The position numbers were made by a program, and so were the translations under genes. A stretch of DNA of 64,000 nucleotides, taken from Escherichia coli. GTDB taxonomy: Bacteria > Pseudomonadota > Gammaproteobacteria > Enterobacterales > Enterobacteriaceae. This document shows, in pieces, positions 19,168 to 60,845 of this stretch. The number at the start of each line of letters is the position of its first letter. Position 1 is the stretch's first letter. The notes beneath the pieces are model-generated. The model was not told the DNA's origin. It ran no database searches and saw only the letters and a list, made by a program, of their open reading frames with translations. The stretch lies in NCBI RefSeq assembly GCF_030013595.1, contig NZ_CP122768.1, one strand, 5' to 3'.

Positions 19168-22100
19168 CTACCGCGTGCTCAGTCGCCCCTGGCTTCTGAG
19201 CACTTCACGGTGCAGGGCGTCACGTGTGAACTCGCTGATGACCTCCCGGTCCAGATTTATCTGCTGGAGATGGCCGCTGCCGTAGTACAGATGACGCTGC
19301 GTTCTGCCGTCCGGAAAGGTGGTGGCTGTCCGGTTGCTGAGTTCATCGTACTGATGGGTCAGGACGCCCTGCGCCGTCTCCTCAGTCAGCATCCGCCCCA
19401 GTCTGTCGTAACTGAAGCGGATAATCTCCGGTGCGTCTGTTTCCCCGGCATCCGACCGTCGGCGGCGGATTTCCAGTAGCTGGTCTGCCGCATCATGGAC
19501 GTATTCCGTACGGCTATCGGCTGTCTCCTTTGCCGTAAGCCGGCCCGCCGCATCACGTGCCAGCCGATGGCGGATTTCACCGCCCCGGTCCCCGGTGAAC
19601 ACCACTTCCGTGACCGCGTTCAGCGCGTTGTAGCGGTACGTCTGGCGGCAGCCGTCCGGATTTATCTGCTCCGCCAGACGGTCCAGCACATCATGGCGGA
19701 ACCGGTAGCTTTCTCCGTTCTCGTTTGTCAGCGTGACCAGACGCCCGTAAGCATCGTACCCGAATGCCGTCCTGCGCCCCGTCGCGTCCGTCCGGCTGCG
19801 CACCCGGCCCTGCCCGTCCCGCTGCCAGCGCGTTATCCTCCCCATCGGGCTGGTGTACTTCACCAGCCTGCCCGCCGCGTCCGACTGGTAATTCACCGTG
19901 CGGCCGTCCGCCAGTATCACCTCCGTCAGGTGGCCGCTGTCGTCATACCCGTAGCGCGTGCTGTGGCTCTGCGCGTCTGTCATCCGTATCAGCCGCGTGC
20001 GTTCGTCGTAGAACCAGGCCGTCTGCGAGCCGGAACAGTCCGTGTGCCGCATGAGCTGCCCGTCTTCGTTCCACTGAAGGTATTTATTCCCCCCGCGCGC
20101 ATCGGTTATCTGCACCACCTGGCCGTGGCGGTCATACTGATACCGGGTGTTCTGCTGCAGCGGGTCGGTCACCGCAAGAAGATTGCCGCGTTCATCGTAC
20201 TCACAGCACCAGCTGTTCCCCGCCGCGTCCACCTCCGTTTCCGGCTGGTGCCACACCGGGTGCCACTGTGTCTGTGCCACCCGCCCCAGCGGGTCGTGCG
20301 TCTCCGTGATATGCCCCTGCCGGTCATACACATAGCGCCATTTGCCGCCCTGCGCATCGGTCATTCCCAGTAACAGCCGTTCTTCGTCGCTCCAGCGGAA
20401 CGTCGTCACCTGCCCGGCTTCGTCCTGGTACGCCGTCACCTGGTTCTGCGCGTCCCACTGATGATAACGCGTGCGCCCCAGCCCGTCCGTCACGCACAGC
20501 CTGCGTGACGCCAGGCTCCACGCCAGCCGGTACTGTTCACCGCTGTCCGTGTGGTGCCCCGTCACCCGCCACGCTGCGTCATCCGGGCCTTCATACCAGC
20601 CCCACTGGTAATAATACCCTTCGCCGCCCGGCTGGCGGTGCAGGGTCATGCAGTGGTTTTCGTCGTAAGCAAACTCGCGCAGCAGGTGTCCCGTGCTGTC
20701 GTACACGCCGTTCAGGTCGCCGGCCTCGTCATAGCGGTAACGACGCAGCAGTAAAGGAGCCGTCTCAGGGAAATGCTGATAAATCTGTGTCACCCGCCGG
20801 GGATGCGCCGCCAGTTCATAATGCAGACGGATGCACGGACGCTGCTGTTCACCGCTGATTTGCGTGATGCGCCCCAGCTCGTCGTAGTACAGATTCAGAC
20901 AGTTGCTGTTGCGGTCGCCCAGCATTTTCAGCCGCTGGCGCTGCGGGTGATGCGGGTCGGCCTCAAACAGAAAAAACTGCCCGTCATCGCTGCTGATAAG
21001 CCAGTGCCCCTGCTCACCCCGCCTTACCGCCAGTCCTTCGCCGGGGCTGTAAAACCCGCTCCCCGGCAGCACGGCCTCCATATCCAGGCGTCGTCCCATG
21101 CCCGACACAAAGGTCATACAGTTTTCGTCAGCAGTACCCGGCGTGCGCTCGAGGCTGACTTCATACATCACGCTCCAGCCCTGCCCGAACATCCCTTCCG
21201 TGCGGTCGTCACGACTGCTGTACACGCGCTGCCAGTCCAGCGGAAAGTGGCCCGGCAGACTGAAATCGAAGTCATCGTCATCCGCCAGATATTTGGCTCC
21301 GGTGGCGGCATTGACCGGATGCGGAAGGGCACTGATGGCCTTCTGCGTCATCACCCCCATCCCGACACTGGCAGCAAAACAGGCGATTTTAGAAAGCATT
21401 TTGCCCGGGCGAAGAAACATCAGCGCCACAGTTGCCACCAGGGTTATCTGCGACCTGCCGCTTCTGATATCCCTGACCACCAGTAACGGACCGCCAATGC
21501 GGACATCCGGTGACACAAACGCCCCGTTCCCCGGCTCATTCACCACCCAGGCCTCGCAGGTGCAGCGTGCCCCGCTGCGTGCCGCCGGCTGGCTGTTGAT
21601 ACGCACATCCCGCGCGCCTTCCGCGATATATTCCGCTGCGGGCGGTTCATCATCGCCTTTGAACAGATTACTGATGCTGCCAATAACCGCATTCACTCCC
21701 TGAAAGGCGGTTTCCAGCATACCGCCCGGACTCAGCAGGTTAAGGGCCGTTCCCAGAGGGTCATCCAGAAAGGCGGCTTTTTTTTGTGCGAGAAACTGCG
21801 TCAGTGAGGAGGGATGTTTATGGCAGTCGATTTTATCGTCAGGGGTCGGGGTGGAGCCCGGGGCCGCACTGGCCACGGTGGGCTGCCATAGTTCCGACAC
21901 AAAATGTGTCACGCCATCCACCATTTCAGAACGCCCTTCTTCCGTACTGAGCTGGTCATGCAGCGCCCGGGACATCAGCACAGGCCCTGTCACCGGGTTA
22001 ACCGCCAGGGCTATGGCCCCCGCCATTTCCAGATATTCCCCGGCCACATCCCGGAACGTTCTGGCGTCCTCCTGACGCTGCGCTTCTTCCTGTTCCGCCT

Positions 22101-22503
22101 TCGCCTGTGCCTCCTGCGCCTCAATGTCCTGCCGCGATGCCGCAGTCGCCGCTGCCCGCGCGGCAGGTTTGCTGTTGATCCATGTGTCGCCAGAGCCGGT
22201 GAGGATGTAACCTTCAATCTGAGGCGGGAAAAGCATATTTGCGAGGTCTGAACAGACTTCGCTGACCTTTTCTGTCACGCCGGTGTACACCATCGCCACA
22301 CCCGCCACAAAACCGGTCAGCACGACGGCCGTGCACCCCATAGTGATCCCCGCTGACGTCGCCAGTAACGAGGTTGTGCCGACAATGAGGGCATCAATAA
22401 CGACATTTGCGGCCACCTCCAGCACCGCCCCCAGCACATCTGCCATAAACGACGTATGCAGCAGGGCATCACCCTGCCTTGCCGCCCAGAATGCCTCTTC
22501 CAT
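19168..22503 (-). CDS. prePAAR/PAAR-Rhs effector, N-terminal 1111 codons, terminated by an in-frame TAG at 19165-19167
   Basis: N-terminal AARQGDALLH (AARxxDxxxH prePAAR motif), hydrophobic segments, SKPAARA / SQPAARSG PAAR-like motifs, many YDxxGR repeats. Confidence 0.8.
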   Translation of the reverse strand: MEEAFWAARQGDALLHTSFMADVLGAVLEVAANVVIDALIVGTTSLLATSAGITMGCTAVVLTGFVAGVAMVYTGVTEKVSEVCSDLANMLFPPQIEGYILTGSGDTWINSKPAARAAATAASRQDIEAQEAQAKAEQEEAQRQEDARTFRDVAGEYLEMAGAIALAVNPVTGPVLMSRALHDQLSTEEGRSEMVDGVTHFVSELWQPTVASAAPGSTPTPDDKIDCHKHPSSLTQFLAQKKAAFLDDPLGTALNLLSPGGMLETAFQGVNAVIGSISNLFKGDDEPPAAEYIAEGARDVRINSQPAARSGARCTCEAWVVNEPGNGAFVSPDVRIGGPLLVVRDIRSGRSQITLVATVALMFLRPGKMLSKIACFAASVGMGVMTQKAISALPHPVNAATGAKYLADDDDFDFSLPGHFPLDWQRVYSSRDDRTEGMFGQGWSVMYEVSLERTPGTADENCMTFVSGMGRRLDMEAVLPGSGFYSPGEGLAVRRGEQGHWLISSDDGQFFLFEADPHHPQRQRLKMLGDRNSNCLNLYYDELGRITQISGEQQRPCIRLHYELAAHPRRVTQIYQHFPETAPLLLRRYRYDEAGDLNGVYDSTGHLLREFAYDENHCMTLHRQPGGEGYYYQWGWYEGPDDAAWRVTGHHTDSGEQYRLAWSLASRRLCVTDGLGRTRYHQWDAQNQVTAYQDEAGQVTTFRWSDEERLLLGMTDAQGGKWRYVYDRQGHITETHDPLGRVAQTQWHPVWHQPETEVDAAGNSWCCEYDERGNLLAVTDPLQQNTRYQYDRHGQVVQITDARGGNKYLQWNEDGQLMRHTDCSGSQTAWFYDERTRLIRMTDAQSHSTRYGYDDSGHLTEVILADGRTVNYQSDAAGRLVKYTSPMGRITRWQRDGQGRVRSRTDATGRRTAFGYDAYGRLVTLTNENGESYRFRHDVLDRLAEQINPDGCRQTYRYNALNAVTEVVFTGDRGGEIRHRLARDAAGRLTAKETADSRTEYVHDAADQLLEIRRRRSDAGETDAPEIIRFSYDRLGRMLTEETAQGVLTHQYDELSNRTATTFPDGRTQRHLYYGSGHLQQINLDREVISEFTRDALHREVLRSQGRLSTR

Positions 22504-22521: not shown

Positions 22522-22974
22522 TTAATTCGTCCCGGCTTCCTGCCGCATCCTGAAGCGCAGATTCTTTTTAATTTCAGCCCAGCGCGTCATATCTGCCGGG
22601 GTCAGCGGTGTGGTTCTGGCGTAGGTGAAGGCCATCATGACCCGCTCACCCGGCAATACAAATGCCACCTGACACTGGTACACCTGCTCGTTACCCCGGA
22701 GAAACTGGCTCTGTATTTCCAGTCCTTCTTCACCGTCATTAATCCCCACCCGTGTTACCTGAACGGGCGTGTAGTGAAGATCTTTTACCTGTTTCTCCAG
22801 TTTTTTCATTTGCTGTTCAATCTGGGAGGCTAATTCGTCTCCTTCCTGCATCTGGCCCCGGCTGATAATGAGTGCAGCGTCGGGATCGCTGAGGCGCAGC
22901 ATATTAATAGTACTGTCCTGAATAATATTCCCGGAAAAAGTTACAACAGTTTCATTGAGATAATACTCCGTCAT
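22522..22974 (-). CDS. DUF1795/Eag-family effector-associated chaperone candidate
   Basis: 150 aa immediately upstream of the prePAAR-Rhs gene, AGGA RBS; family assignment by context and size, not by a search. Confidence 0.55.
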   Translation of the reverse strand: MTEYYLNETVVTFSGNIIQDSTINMLRLSDPDAALIISRGQMQEGDELASQIEQQMKKLEKQVKDLHYTPVQVTRVGINDGEEGLEIQSQFLRGNEQVYQCQVAFVLPGERVMMAFTYARTTPLTPADMTRWAEIKKNLRFRMRQEAGTN

Positions 22975-23024: not shown

Positions 23025-25019
23025 TTATTTTTTAGTCATGAAGGCGACATCTATCGCCAATTGAAGGGCTGTTTTTTCCGATGTTCCAGGCGGAAGTATA
23101 TCTGCCGCCCTGTTATTCATATTTAAATCAAGCTGACCTGATTGTGTATTTATCTTTCCATTTTCTGTTGCAGTAATATTAAAATTCTTACAGGTTATAT
23201 TAAATATTCCGTCACTGGTCATTTGCAGGATAGTGTTCCCACAACTAAGAATTATGGAATCTCCCGCAGCAAGGCGTAAATTCTGTACGGCCTGAATCGT
23301 TTTATTTTGTCCGGCAAGGGAGGTATCATCCATCTGAACTGTAAGAGAACGTTCCTCACCAATTATCGCTGTTTCTGTTTTATCAATGACTTTAAGGCGA
23401 TTATTGCCCACCCAGTGGCTTTCATTATTATTTACTTCAATCCGCTGATCTTTTTCGGCATGTAGCCAGACCTCTTCACCGCCAGGTTTATCCTCAAAAC
23501 GTAGTGCGTTGGCATTGGTTGGGCCGCCGCCGATAGTGTGACTGTAAAATCCGCTTTGCGTCGCTGCGCCCGGTAGTCCCCACGGTGGCATGGTGTCCTG
23601 GTTGTAGGTACGCCCAACAATTATCGGTAAATCCGGATCACCGTTTTTGAAATCCACCAGTACTTCCTGACCAATGCGCGGGATCTGAATGCCACCGAAT
23701 CCTTTACCCGCCCACGGATAACTGACACGGACCCAGCAGGAACTATTTTCGTCATTCTTACCGTAACGATCCCAGCCAAACTGAACTTTCACCCGGCCAT
23801 ATTTATCTGTCCAGATTTCCTGCCCTGCCGGGCCGGTGACGATGGCGCTCTGCGGGCCTTTAGTGTGGGGTTTGCTCAGGGTTCGTTGTGGGCGGTAAAC
23901 TTCGCTGGTGGGATGCAGTTCAAAGCTGGTTGAGTAAGAGAAATGCTGCTCCTGGCCGCTGTGTTGCGCATTGTCCTGTATAAATAGCGTGGTCTGTACC
24001 AGCAGATATTCCCGGTTCACTTCGGCTGTCGGATAGTTTTCCAGGATGAAGGTAAAACCTGTCATCAGGGTACGAATATTGCCGCTGCCCTGTACCCGAC
24101 TACCTGGGCTACGCTGTTCTTCCATGCGAATGCGTGTCAGCATTTCACCTTCACTCTTTGTGAAGTAATCTCCCGGCCATTCGTAGTGCTCATATTCAGC
24201 AAGGCCGGTTTCACGCGGATTAGCCACGATGCTCTTCAGCAGTGAACGCGGCTTCATAAAGTCGAAATCATTCAGCACCCACTGTCCACTGCGCAGACTT
24301 TCATTTGCTGTGATGGTATGGATAAACTCCTTGTCCAGTTTCAGCCCTTTCTGGTAATAACACACCAGCGGCGAATCTGCGCATGCCTTGTGGACATTAA
24401 TGGCATCAGCCAGCACTAACGTGTGACTGTTCTCGCTGTGCTCAAACCACCAGTAGATACCCCACTCCTGCATCAGGCGCTGAACAAAATCGAAATCTGT
24501 TTCACCGTACTGCACCTGCCAGGCGCGAGTCGGATAATTTTCCACCAGTCGTTTTTCCACTGGCCAGGGGTACTCATCCAGTACCTCATCCAGGATCTCC
24601 ACCACGTTTTTATTCTGAAACGCTTTGTAGTCACTAGTGTGGGTCAGTATTTTTAACCACGGTTCGAGCCGCAGTTCATACACCACCGAACGTCCTTGAT
24701 GACCAGCCACGCGTGCCGCCGTCACCAGCCCGCTGATATAACGTTTTCCGCCGCCATCCAATTCGATATTGACGCACAGATCTTTGCCCACCATCGGTTT
24801 GAGCTGCAGGTTGGCTGCGGGGGAAACATAGCCCAGGTTCAGGATGTCAGGAGTTTTTAATTTAATAGAATAAGTAAATAGTTCCCCTACTGTTTCTGTA
24901 CCCCCTAAGCTTGCAAACAGTAACATTCCATCAGGAACTGCGCTGCCGCTCAAAGTCACGTTATGTGTACCCGATCCAGTTAGTGCGCCGGATGGATAAT
25001 CTGTAGCTGCAAAACTCAT
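23025..25019 (-). CDS. vgrG: VgrG (TssI) T6SS spike protein
   Basis: 664 aa; N-terminal VgrG-type region ([25 protein letters not shown]), gp27/gp5-like body, Gly-rich repeats; AAGGA RBS. Confidence 0.8.
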
Positions 25020-25240
25020 AATTAATCCTTTTAACTAGAAATGGATAAGTGCTAATAAGAAATCTTACAGAGAATAAAATATGCAATATATTCGTAGCTG
25101 GCATAAAACATCTCAATACTTATGCGTGCTACTGAAGATACTATCAACCATATATGCCTTGAAGAATGCACCGTCATGTTAACCTGGTGGAAACATTCAC
25201 CTAAAGTACATTAATAAAACTAATAAAATTATTTAATTTT

Positions 25241-25597
25241 TTATTTGATATGATTATCATCAAGTCTTAAAATACGTTCTCCGGTTCTAATTATGCTAAA
25301 ACCATAGTATTCTTTTTTACTTCCGGAAGAGAGCATATATTTCCCGATATACATAACATCTGAAGATAGCTCACTTATATCAATACATACGGGTTCGAAC
25401 TGACCTGTCACTCTTTTCAACTTTATTGCATTGCCATATTTACCTTCATATAAAACATAATTTGAAATAATATTCCCATCGTCTGGTTTTGAACAAATCT
25501 GTCCGTCTTGCAAATATACACTACCGGGTAACAATGGGCGAACATAATCACCAACAGTGCATCCCGACAAAAAGAAAAACAAAAAGAATCTCTTCAT
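25241..25597 (-). CDS. Lipoprotein, putative periplasmic immunity protein
   Basis: Signal peptide plus lipobox (FLSGC); start overlaps stop of the upstream HExxH gene (ATGA). Confidence 0.6.
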   Translation of the reverse strand: MKRFFLFFFLSGCTVGDYVRPLLPGSVYLQDGQICSKPDDGNIISNYVLYEGKYGNAIKLKRVTGQFEPVCIDISELSSDVMYIGKYMLSSGSKKEYYGFSIIRTGERILRLDDNHIK

Positions 25598-26163
25598 ATG
25601 ACACCCGCAGGAAATAAATTAAGCACCTTTTTGTATTTTTCCGATAGAGTGTTCACTGATTCAGTTGTATCACCTACATAGTTAACATTTGCCAAATCAG
25701 CCACCAGTCCATAGTTAATTAATAGCCAATAATCAGCAACTATAGATGCTTGTTGTTCCATGGAATAAGAAGAAATTGACTGTAAATTAAGATCGTAATG
25801 ATAATTTGCCGCCCAAGAAAATAAACCACGCAACTTAACTGCATACCCTTTCTGATATTGCCAAACATGCATCATTTCATGAATAAACAAGTGAGAAGCA
25901 CCTGCTACTGTTTCACGATCACCAGGCATTGCTTGCGATGAATAATCTGAACTATAAACAGCATCAGGATAATACATTTCCCCGTTTGGGGTCATCGCTG
26001 TTCTTTCCCCTTGACCAGGCAAATATTTTTCATTGTGGATCCATACCTTGCTATAATCAATTGTATTCTCAAAAATCGATCTGGCCAATGTTAATTCACC
26101 AGATGTCATTCTCCTTAATGACATATCCTTTCCCCTGGAAATAATATCTTTCAGATAAAACAC
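25594..26163 (-). CDS. HExxH zinc-metallopeptidase-like protein, candidate toxin/effector
   Basis: HEMMHVWQYQKG motif; no signal peptide; track start is GTG, ATG alternatives at 26124 and 26109. Confidence 0.55.
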   Translation of the reverse strand: MFYLKDIISRGKDMSLRRMTSGELTLARSIFENTIDYSKVWIHNEKYLPGQGERTAMTPNGEMYYPDAVYSSDYSSQAMPGDRETVAGASHLFIHEMMHVWQYQKGYAVKLRGLFSWAANYHYDLNLQSISSYSMEQQASIVADYWLLINYGLVADLANVNYVGDTTESVNTLSEKYKKVLNLFPAGVI

Positions 26164-52249: not shown

Positions 52250-55200
52250 TTAAGAAACAGTAATACCGGTAGTTGCTTTTTTAGTTACCATTACCGTTAA
52301 ATCACTGATCCATGTGCTAGGCGTCCAGTTGTTGATTGCGCTTGATTGCACTTCAAAGGTCAAGGTCACAGCACCCTTACCCGCTGGCATATCAATAACA
52401 CCTGAGTAAAGACCAGTATTACCGCCATACGCCCTATTATACAACTCTGACCCATTCTTACGAACAATCAGGCGACAGGTGTCGTAATAGGTATTATTGT
52501 TCGACCCTTCACGCGCTCGCAATCCACCAAAACTAACAGCCGGAATAACGATTTGACGATCGAACTTGTGATCATCTTCAACGCGAACAGTGACCGTACC
52601 TTGTGGATAGCCAGCATAACCATTATCAACGTTAACATCACGATGCGGGAACTTACGTCCAATCACCTTAACGAAATCACCCTTAACCTGAGTAGCTTCA
52701 AGCATACCCTTAATAACACAGCTAGAGTTAATCGTGACGTTGTTCAGAGTACCAGAATCGGCAGTGATATTACCTTTAACGGTTGCATTCATGAACGTAG
52801 CGGACCCGTTCTTGTTGATATGCCATCCGGTAGATCCGTTCCAGTCGGAAGACTGGATATAGTTACCAATTTTAGCGTTATCAATTGCGCCATTTACAAT
52901 CTTGGCGTTGGTGATCGCGCCGTCTTGGATTTTCGCTGAATTGATCGCAGCATTGCCAATTTTAGCCGTGGTGATACTAGCATCAGTAATCTGTGCTGAT
53001 CCGATTGAGGCATTACGAATCATGGCACTGTCGAGATAAACCTTGTTACCTTCGATACCAAACGGGCATACTTCCGATCCGTTCTGTGGAGCTACCGCGA
53101 TTTTATCAGCATTAAAGATGATTCTCGTCGGTTGCGCCGGATCGTTGGTTGCGCTCATGTGAATACCAGCCACGCGACCATCTGCATTAACTGCCAGATT
53201 ATATTTGCTGTTAATGGTTCCTTTCAAAGCATCGATTTTTACATCTGCTTCCTGATTCACGCCAGCAATCTTGCCATCCATTTCTACCCGAACTTGATCA
53301 ATCTTGCTTGCGCTTGCTGCCTCACTGGTAGCAATTGCTTGTTTCAGGGTAGTAGCAGATGCGCTGACTTCGGATTTAATATCGCCTTTCAGTTCAGCTT
53401 TAACCTGATCAATCTTAGTGGAGCTAGCTTGCTCGCTGGTAGCAATCAGACTCTTTAAGGTATTGGCTGAGGCTTGGACCGTCTGCCCTGTTTCGGTAGT
53501 GATTTGCTTATGCATTGCATCAATTTTAGCATCGGCATTAGCGCCAGCTTGAGCAATAGCATCCGCGATAGTTTCATCTAAGCGGTCTTGTAAACCAATC
53601 AGGTCTTCCAGTGCTTCTTTGTCCTGATCGTCCCAGCTAATTGTAGATCTCATTTGCATGAAATAAGGTTCAGACCAAACAGCATCATCCATACCGAAAA
53701 TATCGTAGTGAGCACCACGGATATAATAATCACCGTCAGCAATATCAAAGGAAGTATGGCTAACACTATTCGTGCTTACTGCCCTTGCATCGGAGAAAGT
53801 GTTATCGGTTGCATACTGGATGATTGACCCTGCATAATCATGTTCTACGTCATCTGCCCAGCTAACAAACACACTATTAAAGCCACCACGCGCACTAAAA
53901 CCTTTCATTGGCTTATGTTGTGGGTTGATAGCCACTAAACGCGCTGGGGCGCTCTCTGAGTTGTTATAGCCCTTAGCCGATACTTCTACCGTCAGTTGAC
54001 GCGAAAGGCCGTTAAACTGGTTCATATCAAGCGTATAAGTCCATGATTCAGGATCGCGGGTACGGTACTGAATAGACTTACCAGCCTTGTTAGTCACCTT
54101 GATAATGTATGCTTCAAACAGGTCACTAAACTTGTTAGTTTCACCGTTGATCTCAACATCTAATTGTTGCTGATTTTCCCATTCGATAATCAGATCATTA
54201 CCTTCGAAAGTTCCTGGCGTGCTACCCTGATTTTTGATTCGAATAACCGGAGTCGGCAATTCATAGGTAACAGTCGGATTCTGGTTAATCAGTTCTACCC
54301 ACTCGGAACGAGCAATAATACCGAAAGCACAAACTCGGTAATCATAAGAGCGATCTTTCGCCAGTGCATTGACACTGAAAATTTGCTGTGAAGTCTGTCC
54401 CAGCTTAATCCAGTTAGGCGATCCGCTTACACGGTAATCAATCTGGAAACCATAACGGTTAAAATCTTCCGGTGCATCCCATGTCAAAGTAACGTTTTTA
54501 CCGTAAATCGTCTCACCAGTTGCCTTAATCCTGAAATTAGTAGGCTTCTGTACTGTCATTGAATCCGGTAAACCACTTGGTCTATTGTCTGGAGTTGCCG
54601 CATAGTTCAGGTCAGTATAAACCTGAGAATTATATTCTGTGGCGGTGATAGTCATCATCCCAGCAATACCAGAATCAATCGAGCGATCAATTGCAGTAAT
54701 ACGCCATAAGGAATTATTCAGCTTCAATTCATCATAGGTTACGCTGATAACGTCCCAAACTTCGGCAGTGAATGCGTCAGTAGTCATAAAGCTGATAACC
54801 TGAGTGATACGAGATTTATTTCGCTCAATGCTCGCGAGTTTATCAATCTGATCTTTAGACTTAACAAAACGATATTCAATATCTTTAGCGATAATTCGAC
54901 CATCTTGACGAATAGTAGCATCGTTTTCAGCATCAGCCGGATAACGTAGCATTTGCTCTGAATAGTCAATTGATGGTTCTTGATACATCGCGTTAATGGT
55001 ATTGAAATAACCGTTAGTGCCACCTGTTTTCAGTGATACCTTACCCATCATGATATTGTCTTCATTGAAGGTATGCTTAACAATATCAGGAGCATCCAGT
55101 TTCAGCGTAATACGTCCAAAGGATTCGAACATCACCCCGCCGAAAGTCTGCATAAGATTAGTCAAGTTCTCTTTAAAGCTGGCGTTCGGATCACATGCAC

Positions 55201-56026
55201 CGTTTGAATGTAGATCCATCTGGCGTACTTGTTTACGTACTTTCAGGAATGAATCAACGTTAATGTTTTCAATTGGTACAGATAAGCCATATTTTTCATT
55301 TGTTAGGTAGTGGAAAATCTGGTCCACGCCGTTAGTGCTAGCCTCAATAGCATTAGTTTCAAGGTTACGAATCTTTAAGCCCATAACATCGACTGCTACC
55401 TGGCTATTTGGCTGGAGAATATCAACACCAGCAGCAAGAGATTTGTCATCACGACGTAACACAATACACATGGTTGCAATACCATTGCCTTTGTAGTTGT
55501 CGTTCCAGTCTGATCCTAAATGACGTTTTGCCAGTGACAAAGCGGTGTTAGGATTCTTACCCGTGCGAAACTCAACTTCTAAAACTTTCCGGTATTCTTC
55601 TTTAATGTTGCCTTTGTCCAGTACACCATCACGGATCGTCATGTTCTTACCAACAAGAACATTTTTGTTATCGATAAACAGTGCTTTGTAATGGTCGATT
55701 TCACCCTCGGCAATTGCGAAGATTTGCACTAACTTATTGTTTTCTTGCTTAGAAATTGCTTTGTAAACGCAGATTGCACCCGTGCGGGTAGTACCAAAAA
55801 GAACGGGTAATACTGTCTTCGGATCGTTTGATGTTCCTAGTGTCACCGCATTATCTGGGCTTTGTACTTTCGGTGTTTTTGGTGCGCCTACAGTGGAAGC
55901 GATCAAGGTCATTGCACCAGCAGCCATACCGATAGCGACTGCGGTCATAACCGAAAATGTTGCGGCTGCCGCCATCCCCGCCGAAGCACCAGCAATAACC
56001 GCGCCTACCAATACTTCAAATCCCAT
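52250..56026 (-). CDS. Host-specificity / central tail fibre protein (lambda gpJ-like)
   Basis: 1258 aa; C-terminus colinear with lambda J (GTLNNVTINSSCVIKGMLEA...VIDMPAGKGAVTLTF...), fibronectin-III-like middle; unusual hydrophobic N-terminus. Confidence 0.8.
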   Translation of the reverse strand: MGFEVLVGAVIAGASAGMAAAATFSVMTAVAIGMAAGAMTLIASTVGAPKTPKVQSPDNAVTLGTSNDPKTVLPVLFGTTRTGAICVYKAISKQENNKLVQIFAIAEGEIDHYKALFIDNKNVLVGKNMTIRDGVLDKGNIKEEYRKVLEVEFRTGKNPNTALSLAKRHLGSDWNDNYKGNGIATMCIVLRRDDKSLAAGVDILQPNSQVAVDVMGLKIRNLETNAIEASTNGVDQIFHYLTNEKYGLSVPIENINVDSFLKVRKQVRQMDLHSNGACDPNASFKENLTNLMQTFGGVMFESFGRITLKLDAPDIVKHTFNEDNIMMGKVSLKTGGTNGYFNTINAMYQEPSIDYSEQMLRYPADAENDATIRQDGRIIAKDIEYRFVKSKDQIDKLASIERNKSRITQVISFMTTDAFTAEVWDVISVTYDELKLNNSLWRITAIDRSIDSGIAGMMTITATEYNSQVYTDLNYAATPDNRPSGLPDSMTVQKPTNFRIKATGETIYGKNVTLTWDAPEDFNRYGFQIDYRVSGSPNWIKLGQTSQQIFSVNALAKDRSYDYRVCAFGIIARSEWVELINQNPTVTYELPTPVIRIKNQGSTPGTFEGNDLIIEWENQQQLDVEINGETNKFSDLFEAYIIKVTNKAGKSIQYRTRDPESWTYTLDMNQFNGLSRQLTVEVSAKGYNNSESAPARLVAINPQHKPMKGFSARGGFNSVFVSWADDVEHDYAGSIIQYATDNTFSDARAVSTNSVSHTSFDIADGDYYIRGAHYDIFGMDDAVWSEPYFMQMRSTISWDDQDKEALEDLIGLQDRLDETIADAIAQAGANADAKIDAMHKQITTETGQTVQASANTLKSLIATSEQASSTKIDQVKAELKGDIKSEVSASATTLKQAIATSEAASASKIDQVRVEMDGKIAGVNQEADVKIDALKGTINSKYNLAVNADGRVAGIHMSATNDPAQPTRIIFNADKIAVAPQNGSEVCPFGIEGNKVYLDSAMIRNASIGSAQITDASITTAKIGNAAINSAKIQDGAITNAKIVNGAIDNAKIGNYIQSSDWNGSTGWHINKNGSATFMNATVKGNITADSGTLNNVTINSSCVIKGMLEATQVKGDFVKVIGRKFPHRDVNVDNGYAGYPQGTVTVRVEDDHKFDRQIVIPAVSFGGLRAREGSNNNTYYDTCRLIVRKNGSELYNRAYGGNTGLYSGVIDMPAGKGAVTLTFEVQSSAINNWTPSTWISDLTVMVTKKATTGITVS

Positions 56027-56445
56027 TATTCACCCCCGAATCTATAAACTTGTTCATAGTCAATGTCTGAAACAGGAATGGTCATCCAGATACCATCTTC
56101 TTCAACGAGGCCATAACCGGAATAATGAGGAACTACGGAATAATAATTACGGTTTCCTAATTTGTGGGCTGTGACCAGTAAGTCGCCGTCCTGTAAATCA
56201 TCAGTGACTAATTTGAAATGTTTCTTAATTGGTTGAAGGATATTTGAATACCCGCTTAATTCTTTGCAGATTTTCAAACCTTCTTCTTTAGTTGAATATT
56301 TTTTATAAAGAGAATTATATAGGTCAGTACCAGCGAGAATATCGATGATCTTACATGCAATTAGATTGCAATCATTCTCACCCTGAACGAACTCCTGACC
56401 TATTAAAGAATTGATGTAATCGGTGATAAGCCTAGTTTTTAGCAT
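56026..56445 (-). CDS. Minor tail protein (gpI/gpK-position tail assembly protein)
   Basis: ATG at 56445 with GGAGG RBS (track ORF extended upstream to 56601); precedes J-like gene with 1-nt overlap. Confidence 0.45.
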   Translation of the reverse strand: MLKTRLITDYINSLIGQEFVQGENDCNLIACKIIDILAGTDLYNSLYKKYSTKEEGLKICKELSGYSNILQPIKKHFKLVTDDLQDGDLLVTAHKLGNRNYYSVVPHYSGYGLVEEDGIWMTIPVSDIDYEQVYRFGGE

Positions 56446-56491
56446 GTTGAATACCTCCATGCTGTTATTTACTAGGCTTAGGGAGAAGGGA

Positions 56492-57145
56492 TTATTTCTT
56501 CGATGAATGCCACTTGCTTTCGCTATTCCACTTCCCGGCTCGGGAGAAGAATAGATCGTTCTCGTTTCCGGCATAGGAACGGTGGATACCATCGGAGGCA
56601 TGACTACGAGCGTTTTTATCTAGAACTTCCCAGATACTATTAAGCTGAAATTCTGATTCGTTTTTACACTCATCATCTTCATGTTCGATGTTAATCCCGA
56701 TGGAATCGACTACCCCACGGAAAACAGGGTAAGTAGTTTCAACCTTGCCCGTGTTGGGGTTAAGGAAAACCATCTCGATTTTCACATCAGATTTATCGAA
56801 TTGCTTGTTTCGAATTAGGGTAATGTATTCTTCGCGAACGTTAGAAACGGTTACGTTAATCCCGTTGTTGTTGATCTCCTTCTCTTCGGTATTCGATGAG
56901 ATTTGAAGAAAATCACCCGTTGCGAGATACGTAAATCCGTTATAGTCCAAATCGAAATACCCATCTGTAAGCCGTAGAACGTCCCCTGACGCTGTTATCA
57001 CTTCGATAATGTGAAACATCGATCCAGTGGAAAAAAGCTGCGGTAGCGTCAATCTAGACACGTTCTGACCTGTCTGGTCGTTGTAGACCTCGATGAAGTC
57101 CAGATTAGTGCATAGTTTGCTGAATGATTCTTGAATAGTTGCCAT
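56492..57145 (-). CDS. Minor tail protein (gpL-position)
   Basis: 217 aa between distal tail gene and J-like gene. Confidence 0.45.
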   Translation of the reverse strand: MATIQESFSKLCTNLDFIEVYNDQTGQNVSRLTLPQLFSTGSMFHIIEVITASGDVLRLTDGYFDLDYNGFTYLATGDFLQISSNTEEKEINNNGINVTVSNVREEYITLIRNKQFDKSDVKIEMVFLNPNTGKVETTYPVFRGVVDSIGINIEHEDDECKNESEFQLNSIWEVLDKNARSHASDGIHRSYAGNENDLFFSRAGKWNSESKWHSSKK

Positions 57146-57705
57146 TATACATTCTCCACTAATTCAAATTTCATCTTGCCAATCTGGGCGATCTTCCAAT
57201 CGATATTTTCAGTTTTGAGAACAAATTCACCTTCTACGTTTTGATACTTGATCACCTCACCCGCCAGGACGTTTTGACGCAAGTTAGGGAAGAGTTTCAT
57301 TTCACCACCTGATTTCACGTCTTCGGTGATCGTGTAGATTTTCTTGTGGTTCTCAAACTGGATGATAGTTCCTGCTTTCAGTGTTCCGGTGAAGTTGGAG
57401 AGTCTCACCTTACGCCCACCGCGAGCAGTACCAGCAGCAGCCGTTACCATCTGGCGTACATCACCTGTATATTTTGAAAAGTAAGACAGTGGCACATTGA
57501 AAGGACGACCAAAAAGGTGACGTGCTACAAATTCTTTTACTTCGTTAATATCCTGAGCCATGTAATTCGCGGTAAATTCTGCTTCGTAAAAATGGATGCC
57601 AGTAAAGCGACGCTGGAACTTACCAGAAATAGATTGCGCCTTAAAGAAAGGCTGTTTTGATTTAAGAGTAAAATCTGTGATTTTAATATTCTTGGATTTG
57701 AACAT
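57145..57705 (-). CDS. Minor/distal tail protein (gpM/Dit-position)
   Basis: Directly downstream of tape measure gene; probable start ATG 57705 (track start 57720 lies in a hairpin). Confidence 0.45.
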   Translation of the reverse strand: MFKSKNIKITDFTLKSKQPFFKAQSISGKFQRRFTGIHFYEAEFTANYMAQDINEVKEFVARHLFGRPFNVPLSYFSKYTGDVRQMVTAAAGTARGGRKVRLSNFTGTLKAGTIIQFENHKKIYTITEDVKSGGEMKLFPNLRQNVLAGEVIKYQNVEGEFVLKTENIDWKIAQIGKMKFELVENV

Positions 57706-57756
57706 AGAAAAGCCCCCCATAGTTTTATGATTATTTATGACTATGGGGGCTTTTAA

Positions 57757-60111
57757 TTACATCTTACGGCGTTGTGCGTCTTCTACCGCCTGAGCAACTA
57801 ACTTAGCGTGACGTTTGATAGCATCCATGACCATCTTGTCTGAGCTATTAACGTTGCCGTTAATGTTCAAAGGCGCATTAACTTCAATCGGTTGAGAGTT
57901 GCCACCGCCTGATTTTTGAGCAGCAAGGAAGTCTTTCAAATCACCGTTAGTACGCTGATCAACTACTCGTTCACCCTTATCAAGCAACCATGTACCCTCA
58001 CGAGGGATGTTATCAATACCATCATGAGCCATACCGCTAACGTTAGTAGACTTGATGTTGGCGATGCTCCCCATGTTCTGAGAAACAGCCAATGCAGCAG
58101 CCGCGATTTTTTGACCTGTGGTTACGTTGGTCGGATCGTTCCATGCATCGGTAGCAGCCGTCCACATGTTCACCGTCGCTTGTCCAATAGAGAATGCTTT
58201 ATGAGCAGTGAAAGCCATCTGCATAGCTTTAGTGTTTTCCTGCCCGAAGAGAGTCATTGCAGCAGCAAAACCGCCATACATATCATCAGCTATTGACTGA
58301 CGAGCATCAGCATATTTCTTCTCAATTGCAGCCATTCGTTTTTGATGGTTTTCATTGAGTTTTTCTAATTCTTCCATCCGTTTAGCCGGATCGGTGATCC
58401 CATCAATCTTGATTTTACCGGTCTTATAATCTTGTTCCGCTTCCGATTTCTCTTTATCGATTGCATTAAATTTAGCAAACGGATCATTTGGATCTTGATA
58501 GTCTAAGCTATTGGTCAACTGATTGGTTTTAAAACCATCCATTCCATGCAAAGAATCTTCAATCTGTGAATAACTTTGCTCGGTATCATTCACACGACGC
58601 ATATATTCTTCGTAGGAGATAGCTTTACCATCAAGTAACCGTTTATGGCTTTCTAACTCGTTGTCCCTGATTTGTTGCAAAACTGTTAAGGCATTCAAAG
58701 CATCAACCGGATCAGCACCCAGCATCATTTTATAGATGTTTTCTGCGTTCTGGTCTAACAGTTGCTGACGTTTAGCGGCTGCGTCTTGCTGTGAGATTAA
58801 GCCCAGATCTAAAGCAGTGTCCAAATCTTTCAAGCTGGCTTCTAACTGCTTGTTTTGAGAAGCAATAGACGCGGCTGTCTGTCCTTGCAATTTAACATCA
58901 AGAGCATTCAGTCGCTTGATTGCATCCTCGCGTGCTTTCTGTGCTTTTTCTGCGGCTTCCTTAGCCTTTTTAGCTGCCTCTTCCGCTTTCTTCTTGGCTT
59001 CTTCTTGTTCTTTTTTTGTTGGACCAGTGACGCCTCCACCTTGACCCGTTGGGGTAAATCCAGTATCCGATTTATTTCCAGTGATAGTAATTACCGGATC
59101 GCCGTTTTTATCACGGGTAACTCCTTCACTATCCACCCAACGATCAGGATAATTTGGTTTATTGTTGAAGCTGGCTTGTCCACCTGCTAGACCAGTAGAA
59201 CTATAACCATGCTTGTTAATAAAACCACCGTTAGCCATAGCCATATTCTGGCGAGCTTTTTCAAACCTTTCATTAAACGTCTTTAATGCGTTGAATAAAG
59301 CGGTCTTTTCCCAATCTTTATCAAACCAGTTGTATAACTTGTTCATCCCTTCAACAACTGGATTTAGCGCATTTGCTGCCATACCCTTTAAGTTATCGGT
59401 AAGGGTATCCATATTTTTAGAGAATTTATTATATTCTTCGGCTGTATCATTGGTGATTTTAACAGTTTGCTGATTAATGGCGTTTACAGCTTCCTGATAA
59501 GATCCGTATTTCTGCAATTCATCAGCCATATGACTTGAATCACTGGCTAACGATTCCATCATAAACTTAACATCAGCGATAGACGCACCAGCCTTGCGCA
59601 TATCATAGAAGACCTTGATTGCCGCTTTCATCCCGCCTTGTGGATCGTTCATAAACTCGGCATAATCTTTAATCTTCAAACCTACACTTTCTAGGTCGTC
59701 TTCAATACCGCCACCGTTACGCCATGCATCAGCCAGTTTATCTAAGGTGTCTTTGTTAATATCACCAAATTTCTCAACGGTTAAGCCAGTGCCAGAGAAT
59801 TGCTTCTCTAATTTCTGGAGTGTTTCGACGGTTAAACCAGTTGCTTTTGAAACTTCGCTGTATTCCTTTACATAATCACCGATGGCATTTGCAGCAGAGA
59901 CAGCACCAGCAGCCAGACCAACAAAACCACCAGCAGCCAAAGCAAGCGATCCACCAGTTCCGCGAAGGGTTCCACTTAAACTAGATAAACCACCAGACAA
60001 ATCAAGATTCATTGCCCTTTCTGAAAGGTTATCAAGCATGTCAATCGCTTGGTTGGTACTTCTCCTTAGACCGTCGTTATTCCCTTCTATTGTTACTATA
60101 TGTCTTGTCAT
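57757..60111 (-). CDS. Tail tape measure protein
   Basis: 784 aa, long coiled-coil/Ala-Lys-Glu-rich regions (EEAKKKAEEAAKKAKEAAEKAQKA), Gly-rich segment. Confidence 0.8.
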   Translation of the reverse strand: MTRHIVTIEGNNDGLRRSTNQAIDMLDNLSERAMNLDLSGGLSSLSGTLRGTGGSLALAAGGFVGLAAGAVSAANAIGDYVKEYSEVSKATGLTVETLQKLEKQFSGTGLTVEKFGDINKDTLDKLADAWRNGGGIEDDLESVGLKIKDYAEFMNDPQGGMKAAIKVFYDMRKAGASIADVKFMMESLASDSSHMADELQKYGSYQEAVNAINQQTVKITNDTAEEYNKFSKNMDTLTDNLKGMAANALNPVVEGMNKLYNWFDKDWEKTALFNALKTFNERFEKARQNMAMANGGFINKHGYSSTGLAGGQASFNNKPNYPDRWVDSEGVTRDKNGDPVITITGNKSDTGFTPTGQGGGVTGPTKKEQEEAKKKAEEAAKKAKEAAEKAQKAREDAIKRLNALDVKLQGQTAASIASQNKQLEASLKDLDTALDLGLISQQDAAAKRQQLLDQNAENIYKMMLGADPVDALNALTVLQQIRDNELESHKRLLDGKAISYEEYMRRVNDTEQSYSQIEDSLHGMDGFKTNQLTNSLDYQDPNDPFAKFNAIDKEKSEAEQDYKTGKIKIDGITDPAKRMEELEKLNENHQKRMAAIEKKYADARQSIADDMYGGFAAAMTLFGQENTKAMQMAFTAHKAFSIGQATVNMWTAATDAWNDPTNVTTGQKIAAAALAVSQNMGSIANIKSTNVSGMAHDGIDNIPREGTWLLDKGERVVDQRTNGDLKDFLAAQKSGGGNSQPIEVNAPLNINGNVNSSDKMVMDAIKRHAKLVAQAVEDAQRRKM

Positions 60112-60114
60112 AAA

Positions 60115-60465
60115 TTACCCCGTTTGTGCGCTTCTGAGTTTCTCAAGCAAAGATGGATCGAACATGTTCAGCATTGCCGCTTTACGTTCTTCTTCTTTCT
60201 TGCGTGCAATTTCTTCCAGTTCTTCTTTAGTTTTAAAGAGTTTTTCTTCTCTAATTAATTGGAATTGGCTAGGCTTGAGTTTGCGTGCAGTTTCGCGAGT
60301 CATTCCTTGTGACGTCATATACATGGAATATTGCAACATCGCATTCTGCATATCATGAAACGCGGGGCTTTGTGGTTCTAAGTAGGTGTCGAAAATGTAT
60401 AATTTCCAAAACAGAGTGATTGGCATATTATCCATTTCATCTTTACTAAGCCCCGATCGCATCAT
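60115..60465 (-). CDS. Tail assembly chaperone, T-like frame
   Basis: 116 aa immediately upstream of TMP; its frame is open across the stop of the preceding gene. Confidence 0.45.
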   Translation of the reverse strand: MMRSGLSKDEMDNMPITLFWKLYIFDTYLEPQSPAFHDMQNAMLQYSMYMTSQGMTRETARKLKPSQFQLIREEKLFKTKEELEEIARKKEEERKAAMLNMFDPSLLEKLRSAQTG

Positions 60466-60494
60466 TTGCCGGAAATAGAAATTCAGAAGCGGGT

Positions 60495-60803
60495 TTACTT
60501 TACCTCGTTTTCAATTACTGCCGGATCTTGCATCAATGACGCTTGAGCAACCAAACCGATTAATTCACTACGGACGTTAGTATACAGTGCCTTAACTTGT
60601 TCCATAGATTCAAATACTGGTTTACCGTCTTCATCTTCAATACAACGAAGAATAGAACGTTCATCACGGTCTTCTTTATCAGTATTGAAAACATGTTCGT
60701 TAAATTCTTTTACTGACATAGGGCGAGCATAGAACGTGAATCCGCCGATGGTCAGAGATTCACGTTTCGGAGAAAGAGCTTTCAGCATTTCATTAATATT
60801 CAT
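60495..60803 (-). CDS. Tail assembly chaperone, G-like
   Basis: 102 aa acidic protein between tail tube-side genes and TMP. Confidence 0.45.
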   Translation of the reverse strand: MNINEMLKALSPKRESLTIGGFTFYARPMSVKEFNEHVFNTDKEDRDERSILRCIEDEDGKPVFESMEQVKALYTNVRSELIGLVAQASLMQDPAVIENEVK

Positions 60804-60845
60804 TCTTGTTTCCTCTTAAGTTAATTCGATATGTTTATTTAGAAT

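Follow-up and report, generated by a model that had tools for sequence, protein, structure and literature searches.

A putative effector-immunity pair of the type VI secretion system, from the VgrG2b C-terminal/Tpe-Tpi family, beside ansP in Escherichia coli

A pair of overlapping genes on the minus strand of a 64,000-nucleotide stretch of Escherichia coli chromosome (NZ_CP122768.1, hereafter the window) encodes a small stand-alone zinc metallopeptidase and a lipoprotein, and very probably constitutes a type VI secretion system (T6SS) effector-immunity cassette of the VgrG2b C-terminal/Tpe-Tpi family, heading an orphan vgrG-eagR-PAAR-rhs island that lies beside ansP in a minority of E. coli. 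An original prediction, made from the sequence alone, had read the pair as a periplasm-acting toxin with its immunity lipoprotein, a proposal now supported by homology to the VgrG2b effector domain with PA0261 and to SARI_02727/SARI_02726. It had recognised in neither gene a named T6SS effector, whereas a named family does exist for them (VgrG2b C-terminal domain/PA0261, Tpe/Tpi). We infer the toxicity, immunity and secretion of the E. coli pair by analogy with these studied relatives. In RefSeq the two products bear the labels “hypothetical protein”, “lipoprotein” and “type IV secretion protein Rhs”; no description of the E. coli pair was found in a literature search by both RefSeq accessions and by topic, and an in-silico study of the rhsE island in enterohaemorrhagic E. 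coli does not mention it.

The peptidase and the VgrG2b effector domain

The effector gene (25594..26124, minus strand) encodes a 176-amino-acid, 20.0-kDa protein (WP_000058705.1) which, as judged from its sequence, shows clear homology to the effector domain crystallised from VgrG2b of Pseudomonas aeruginosa. This domain was its sole significant match in the PDB, by phmmer as well as by Foldseek. Compared with all PDB chains by phmmer, the peptidase gave a single match at E ≤ 10, chain 6H56_A (E = 1.9e-20), with residues 4-138 of the query aligned to 99-233 of the chain. In this alignment the HEMMH of the peptidase (codons 25867..25881, minus strand; within HEMMHVWQ, residues 82-89 in the numbering of the 176-residue form) pairs with the HEMTH of VgrG2b, and the Glu of MEQQ (E123, codon 25756..25758, minus strand) pairs with the Glu of IEQQ, H82, E83, H86 and E123 thereby aligning with VgrG2b H935, E936, H939 and E983. 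The latter residues, E983 being the third zinc ligand, define a thermolysin-like gluzincin (Wood et al. 2019, PMC6899460); with E123 as its predicted distal third ligand, the E. coli peptidase is therefore a putative gluzincin as well.

The residues H82, E83, H86, E123, Q124 and Q125 are invariant in an alignment with 23 Enterobacterales relatives sharing 43-68% identity. The AlphaFold2 (AF2) model of the peptidase was obtained with a predicted local distance difference test (pLDDT) score of 90.6 and a predicted template modelling (pTM) score of 0.89, and its comparison to the PDB by Foldseek retrieved 6H56 (E = 1e-9, probability 1.00, template modelling scores 0.65/0.63, 34% identity), the second-best match reaching only E = 1.2. 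A profile search among 1.84 billion representative sequences uncovered 3,165 related cluster representatives at E ≤ 1e-3, present as stand-alone proteins of about 170-240 residues, as the C-terminal domain of proteins of about 1,000-1,280 residues and as the C-terminal domain of fusions of 280-450 residues; the one long relative that was looked up (P0149, 1,028 residues) contains VgrG domains. These forms agree with the modular distribution described for this peptidase domain by Wood et al. (PMC6899460). Considering the invariance of the catalytic residues and the number of profile relatives, the HExxH motif is not a chance occurrence, and the zinc-metallopeptidase reading of it is borne out.

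The open reading frame (ORF) of the peptidase (26163..25594) can be read as 189 residues from a GTG at 26163 or as 176 residues from an ATG at 26124, and the original prediction had left its length between these two values. The longer form was considered since SARI_02727 is also 189 residues long and its residue numbers (H95/E96, ligand 136; PMC12992299) equal those of the 189-residue numbering. It was ruled out, the GTG being replaced by ATT in two E. coli strains (MP1 and RM14723) and an in-frame TAG standing two codons ahead of the ATG in strain XJ34. A Shine-Dalgarno sequence (AGGAG/AGGGG) is maintained upstream of the ATG among the E. coli alleles. As the GTG start varies among alleles, the 176-residue product, which is also the RefSeq one, is taken as the conserved form, and it is devoid of a signal peptide.

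The likeness to DUF4157 toxin domains put forward in the original prediction is only a loose one. The peptidase shares with PF13699 (eCIS_core, formerly DUF4157) a short HExxHVxQ-type zinc-binding helix, 12 of its 23 relatives match this family weakly at E ≤ 0.1 (best E = 4.9e-3), and Wood et al. report a DUF4157 classification for many of the orthologues (PMC6899460). None of the 23 relatives matches at E ≤ 1e-3, though, and the peptidase is itself unmatched even at E ≤ 10, so that membership of this family was ruled out at the level of hidden Markov models. The E. coli pair is moreover found in a T6SS context and not in that of an extracellular contractile injection system (eCIS).

A two-gene cassette in Enterobacterales

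The TGA stop of the effector gene lies within an ATGA overlap (25594..25597, minus strand) with the ATG of the lipoprotein gene, as initially noticed together with the lipobox, and both features are confirmed by the sequence; on this arrangement the two genes are translationally coupled. The generality of this organisation was assessed by a scan of one genome per GTDB species, which yielded 80 loci with a relative of the effector, nearly all titled Enterobacterales. At 75 of these loci the start of a lipobox-bearing ORF (about 100-160 residues) lies no more than a few bases from the end of the effector gene, the four-nucleotide start/stop overlap being the commonest arrangement. The downstream lipoproteins form two BLAST clusters (40 and 36 loci), representatives of both passing, with 51.7-105.8 bits, the curated cut-off of NCBIfam NF045617 (“putative T6SS immunity periplasmic lipoprotein”). 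Loci of several Enterobacterales species (L058, L027, L070, L060, L031, L056, L007, L018 and L024; about 6500-8300 in each locus) carry, after a single effector, lipoprotein paralogues in tandem, two to four in number, and such tandem paralogues are typical of immunity genes. A VgrG-fused version of the peptidase, found on a metagenomic contig, is likewise followed by a lipoprotein, with a weak NF045617 match.

Several of these loci display a direct link with T6SS genes: hcp lies directly 3' of the cassette in 16 of the 80 and vgrG in 6, and in 5 loci the pair comes directly after clpV in a tssL-ompA-like-hcp-clpV cluster, three of the latter (L020, L025 and L077) also presenting vgrG directly downstream.

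The lipoprotein and its relatives

The immunity gene (25241..25597, minus strand) encodes a 118-residue lipoprotein precursor (WP_000819258.1), with a predicted all-beta mature part of 106 residues. Its N-terminus, MKRFFLFFFLSGC, shows the basic n-region, the hydrophobic core and the lipobox (L10-S11-G12-C13) of a type II signal peptide (25559..25597, minus strand), and the residue at position +2 is Thr, not Asp. Sorting of lipoproteins by the Lol system is governed by the +2 rule, and Thr rather than Asp at this position leads one to expect sorting to the outer membrane. Cell fractionation placed the homologue SARI_02726 in the outer membrane (PMC6899460).

The lipoprotein matches NF045617 with E = 2.3e-7 over residues 5-91. 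A word-indexed search retrieved as relatives only E. coli alleles, with at least 83% identity, and for this reason synteny and profile comparison were used to establish the link across species. Aligned by hhalign to the lipoproteins located downstream of the effector homologues, it gave a probability of 98.5% (E = 3e-15) over its full length and of 94.7% (E = 6e-8, 95 columns) once the signal peptide was removed, reversed-sequence controls reaching at most 4.3%. The lipidated C13, C35, C71, Y83 and F100 are invariant in an alignment of 30 lipoproteins, and most members of the family possess exactly two Cys in the mature protein. The invariant C35 and C71 echo the disulfide and the DsbA dependence reported for PA0261 (PMC6899460). 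The family DUF7480 is matched by 12 of the 30 aligned lipoproteins, which by composition appear to be of the longer, cluster-2 type.

Likenesses to and differences from studied relatives

The closest architectural match to the E. coli pair is SARI_02727/SARI_02726 from SPI-20 of Salmonella enterica subsp. arizonae, a stand-alone peptidase with its lipoprotein validated in 2026 as an effector-immunity pair by competition and periplasmic expression assays, SARI_02727 being toxic in the periplasm and partly rescued by SARI_02726 (PMC12992299). As in SARI_02727, the E. coli effector stands alone with about 180 residues and consists essentially of the VgrG2b-like metallopeptidase domain; both pairs are bicistronic, with a downstream lipoprotein of the NF045617 family. 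A position immediately upstream of vgrG, as in E. coli, is also seen in L020, L025 and L077, the gene order of which is taken as SPI-20-like. The SARI pair was compared by description only; the Enterobacterales relatives found in the clpV-effector-immunity-vgrG context are 47-48% identical to the peptidase. The two pairs also differ: SARI_02726 is 154 residues long and matches DUF7480, whereas the E. coli lipoprotein has 118 residues, no such match and a score under the NF045617 cut-off, and the E. coli pair belongs to an orphan vgrG-rhs island, unlike the SARI pair, which is part of a core T6SS cluster.

With VgrG2b (PDB 6H56) the E. coli peptidase shares its predicted fold and its catalytic residues, HExxH and distal Glu, as expected for a thermolysin-like gluzincin, but in VgrG2b the domain is part of the spike polypeptide itself, placed after a TTR domain, while the E. 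coli protein would be a separate 20-kDa cargo. Its partner resembles PA0261 in being a downstream-encoded immunity protein with conserved Cys and predicted export to the periplasm; PA0261, for which an N-terminal signal peptide is predicted, was recovered with the periplasmic fraction, and the lipoprotein form is predicted for the Enterobacteriaceae homologues (PMC6899460). Tpe1/Tpi1 of Acinetobacter baylyi ADP1 (ACIAD0053/ACIAD0054) offers another stand-alone cargo of the same family, acting in the periplasm and followed by its immunity gene (PMC6899460); according to its description, Tpi1 is anchored to the inner membrane by an N-terminal transmembrane helix and not by a lipid (PMC6899460).

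These relatives provide the functional background of the prediction. The VgrG2b C-terminal domain and Tpe1 are toxic only if sent to the periplasm, and this toxicity requires the HExxH residues; PA0261 binds the VgrG2b toxin and neutralises its toxicity (PMC6899460). The VgrG2b toxin is bacteriolytic and causes mid-cell blebbing without peptidoglycan hydrolysis, and in its presence lipoproteins such as MltC, LolB and RcsF become less abundant in membranes (PMC6899460). Wood et al. further described this peptidase as a cargo effector in many Enterobacteriaceae, with a predicted lipoprotein encoded after it (PMC6899460).

Distribution and selection in E. coli

Of 5,426 complete E. coli genomes, 230 carry the effector and 226 the lipoprotein, always on the chromosome, and the cassette adjoins ansP in each of the five loci for which the annotation was consulted. 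A full-length effector occurs in 222 of the 230 genomes. The two genes differ in their divergence, the 90-95% nucleotide identity class grouping 135 genomes for the lipoprotein and 1 for the effector. At non-synonymous sites (rate dN) the lipoprotein evolves about three times faster than the effector (0.037-0.061 vs 0.012-0.019), and the ratio of dN to the synonymous rate (dN/dS) is 0.29-0.55 for the lipoprotein, 0.10-0.23 for the effector and 0.10-0.14 for vgrG. On these sequence comparisons both genes of the cassette are under purifying selection.

The co-occurrence of the cassette with a T6SS sheath gene was examined with a chimeric query composed of the cassette and two E. coli tssC fragments, any part of which was matched in 1,518 of the 5,426 genomes. 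Of the 60 best cassette-bearing genomes, 59 had a tssC match, the genome with an identical cassette among them; these 60 are closely related and not an independent sample. The two fragments were the only use made of the corresponding stretch of H40 (strain IH5; NZ_CP168949.1, L082), where the lipoprotein lies beside a sheath gene. This juxtaposition was discarded as a misleading match: the last ~19 kb of this nominally complete E. coli chromosome look like an assembly artefact, in which pieces about 200-600 bp long from unrelated genes (flagellar, T6SS, phage and pdu) follow one another.

Weighing the effector-immunity reading and its alternatives

A number of observations weigh against an effector-immunity cassette of this family. 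The peptidase has no Pfam-A match even at E ≤ 10 and no NCBIfam match. The lipoprotein, with 30.9 bits, stays under the curated NF045617 cut-off of 43 bits and has no Pfam match at E ≤ 10, DUF7480 (PF24295) included. Below both curated thresholds but linked by profile homology, the E. coli lipoprotein is thus, in sequence terms, a divergent member of the effector-linked immunity family. The AF2 model of a fused chain, linking the effector to the mature lipoprotein by (G4S)6 and computed with a paired alignment, reached a pTM of 0.72 and a mean pLDDT of 76, values that include no interface measure and at most hint at a defined complex. Across species, hcp, vgrG, clpV or tssL is found within 6 kb in 24 of the 80 loci and in none of the other 56. 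The linkage to T6SS genes is therefore only partial and the cassette also travels alone, the two-gene module seeming to move on its own. Loci without such a marker within 6 kb include L003, L006 and L034 among others, some of which adjoin an apparent rnc-era-recO-pdxJ-acpS housekeeping cluster, as read from translations. Finally, signs of decay are visible in the island: the effector is a frameshifted pseudogene beside an intact lipoprotein in CEC15 (L086), RM14723 (L085) has a frameshift in the lipoprotein gene and a truncated vgrG, vgrG is deleted by ISAs1 next to an intact pair in XJ34 (L087), and in the window the PAAR-Rhs gene has an in-frame stop at codon 1112 (19168-19170), the protein being intact with 1,548 residues in the closest RefSeq genome.

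This decay could be read as the mark of a relic or of a cassette kept for defence, the island no longer firing the peptidase and the pair persisting chiefly through the protection that the lipoprotein confers against attackers armed with the same toxin. The interrupted Rhs of the window, the lipoprotein outliving its effector in CEC15, the pair retained in XJ34 despite the loss of vgrG and a cluster of 135-residue truncated effectors with 87 member sequences all point in this direction. It nevertheless appears unlikely, since the effector is full length in nearly all carriers and has a dN/dS similar to that of vgrG, since orphan lipoprotein genes are not in excess (226 genomes against 230 with the effector) and since the sheath gene accompanies the cassette in all but one of the sampled carriers. 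Very little probability is given to a peptidase aimed mainly at eukaryotic host cells, with another role for the lipoprotein. Such a host-directed role was the one first described for VgrG2b, which is reported to promote internalisation into epithelial cells (PMC4453011), VgrG2b has been proposed as a trans-kingdom effector (PMC6899460), and the carriers of the cassette include avian pathogenic E. coli (APEC) and human clinical isolates; yet a periplasmic lipoprotein encoded downstream in 75 of the 80 loci and the tandem paralogues are hallmarks of antibacterial effector-immunity systems, and SARI_02727, like the VgrG2b C-terminal domain, is bactericidal from within the periplasm (PMC12992299, PMC6899460).

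It is more improbable still that the peptidase would represent a DUF4157/eCIS-type toxin domain delivered by a non-T6SS system, or a housekeeping peptidase with its inhibitor, even if the sub-threshold PF13699 matches of about half of the relatives, the 56 loci devoid of nearby T6SS markers and the homologues reported in Sphingomonadaceae, where T6SS are rare (Wood et al., PMC6899460), could be put forward for it. The peptidase itself escapes PF13699 at the most permissive threshold used, its gene stands directly upstream of vgrG on the same strand, and in the closest annotated genome the flanking DNA, about 12 kb to each side, contains no eCIS genes. A housekeeping function is not retained for a gene present in about 4% of E. 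coli genomes, AT-rich and located at an insertion hotspot. Given the homologies, the synteny and the selection pattern, we favour the T6SS effector-immunity cassette.

Organisation of the island and its surroundings

The nearest complete genome to the window is NZ_CM149870.1, with 99.9% identity over 25 kb and 100% over the gene pair. On the minus strand the order of genes is the peptidase, the lipoprotein, a spacer, vgrG, a DcrB-related/EagR-like gene and the PAAR-Rhs gene, the island being bounded by ansP on one side and by ydcC/yddH on the other. The AT-rich nature of both cassette genes and their position upstream of vgrG, part of the original prediction, are verified: the G+C content is 37% for the peptidase gene and 34% for the lipoprotein gene, compared with 49% for vgrG, 52% for ansP and 47% for the whole window. 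The AT-rich spacer between the immunity gene and vgrG (25020..25240, minus strand) is 221 bp long, a length kept among E. coli alleles. A terminator-like site was looked for on this strand in the spacer and none was found; promoter and terminator scans performed no better than on shuffled sequence (13 sites vs 9.8 expected), and no regulatory claim is therefore made.

The vgrG gene (23025..25019, minus strand; TIGR03361, E = 1e-166, and RefSeq annotation) lies 221 bp 3' of the cassette on the same strand and encodes a T6SS spike protein of 664 residues, a candidate carrier of the effector. It is followed by a gene (22522..22974, minus strand) labelled “DcrB-related protein” in RefSeq, a putative chaperone gene (DUF1795/EagR-like) for which an NCBIfam search gave no match; this chaperone is presumed to serve the PAAR-Rhs protein and not the peptidase. 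The PAAR-Rhs toxin gene (17857..22503, minus strand; ORF and RefSeq annotation) is interrupted by the stop at 19170..19168 mentioned above, which leaves the RHS core and the C-terminal toxin part as a separate ORF of 415 residues (17872..19119). Downstream of Rhs, a 144-residue ORF without family match (17400..17834) occupies the position expected for an Rhs immunity gene. The distal end of the Rhs island is flanked by the ISAs1-family transposase gene ydcC (15727..16863, minus strand) and by a SymE-like type I toxin gene (16967..17344, plus strand; NF010128, E = 4e-13, below cut-off).

Elsewhere in the window, comparison with NZ_CM149870.1 revealed at 8901 (plus strand) a C-to-T change turning a CAG of narZ into TAG, and at 9507 (plus strand) an extra A by which the 3' end of narZ is shifted into the narY frame. 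With the Rhs stop added, the gene-disrupting differences number three in 64 kb; they could be real pseudogenes or assembly errors. The region 52250-63984 (minus strand) displays large ORFs (1,258, 784 and 641 residues, and several of 100-230) and resembles a prophage tail region.

Proposed mode of action and significance

The favoured effector-immunity reading suggests the following course, largely modelled on the studied relatives. Both proteins are, as the sequence shows, co-translated from one message by way of the ATGA overlap. Having no signal peptide, the 20-kDa peptidase stays in the cytoplasm of the producer, where it should be harmless, as with its relatives. It would be exported as a T6SS cargo, bound to the downstream-encoded VgrG or inside Hcp, and its 20.0-kDa size together with the hcp linkage in other species is compatible with carriage by Hcp. 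Having reached a neighbour's periplasm, the peptidase would use its zinc site (H82, H86 and E123, with E83 as catalytic base) to cleave an envelope protein, by analogy with VgrG2b, Tpe1 and SARI_02727. According to the VgrG2b work, candidate substrates are lipoproteins or cell-wall remodelling enzymes, and the outcome would be mid-cell blebbing and lysis. Sister cells would be protected by the periplasmic lipoprotein, anchored in the outer membrane and binding and blocking the incoming toxin in the manner of PA0261 and SARI_02726, its structure probably being stabilised by a C35-C71 disulfide.

A more speculative idea, to which we give little credit, is that the lipoprotein may owe its neutralising activity to its tether, which would mimic a substrate and dock into the active-site cleft. 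From the VgrG2b work it was suggested that, in envelope lipoproteins, the target of the peptidase is the flexible tether joining the lipidated Cys to the folded domain. The immunity protein of Enterobacterales is a lipoprotein in its own right; a G-D/E motif recurs just past the lipidated Cys in 51 of 76 members of the lipoprotein family, E. coli having C-T-V-G-D, and the fused AF2 model shows some secondary structure, not pure coil, around the start of the mature lipoprotein. If the tether does dock in the cleft, the E. coli pair would show what class of substrate the whole peptidase family attacks.

Conclusions

The understanding of T6SS effectors in general is unchanged by this analysis. 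It gives a probable function to two genes poorly or misleadingly labelled in RefSeq and present in about 4% of complete E. coli genomes, APEC and human isolates included, and it would give the variable vgrG-rhs island beside ansP a further antibacterial weapon. With its small products (20 kDa and 12 kDa), the cassette may represent a genetically tractable E. coli version of this effector family, useful for addressing the questions of its substrate and of its loading route.

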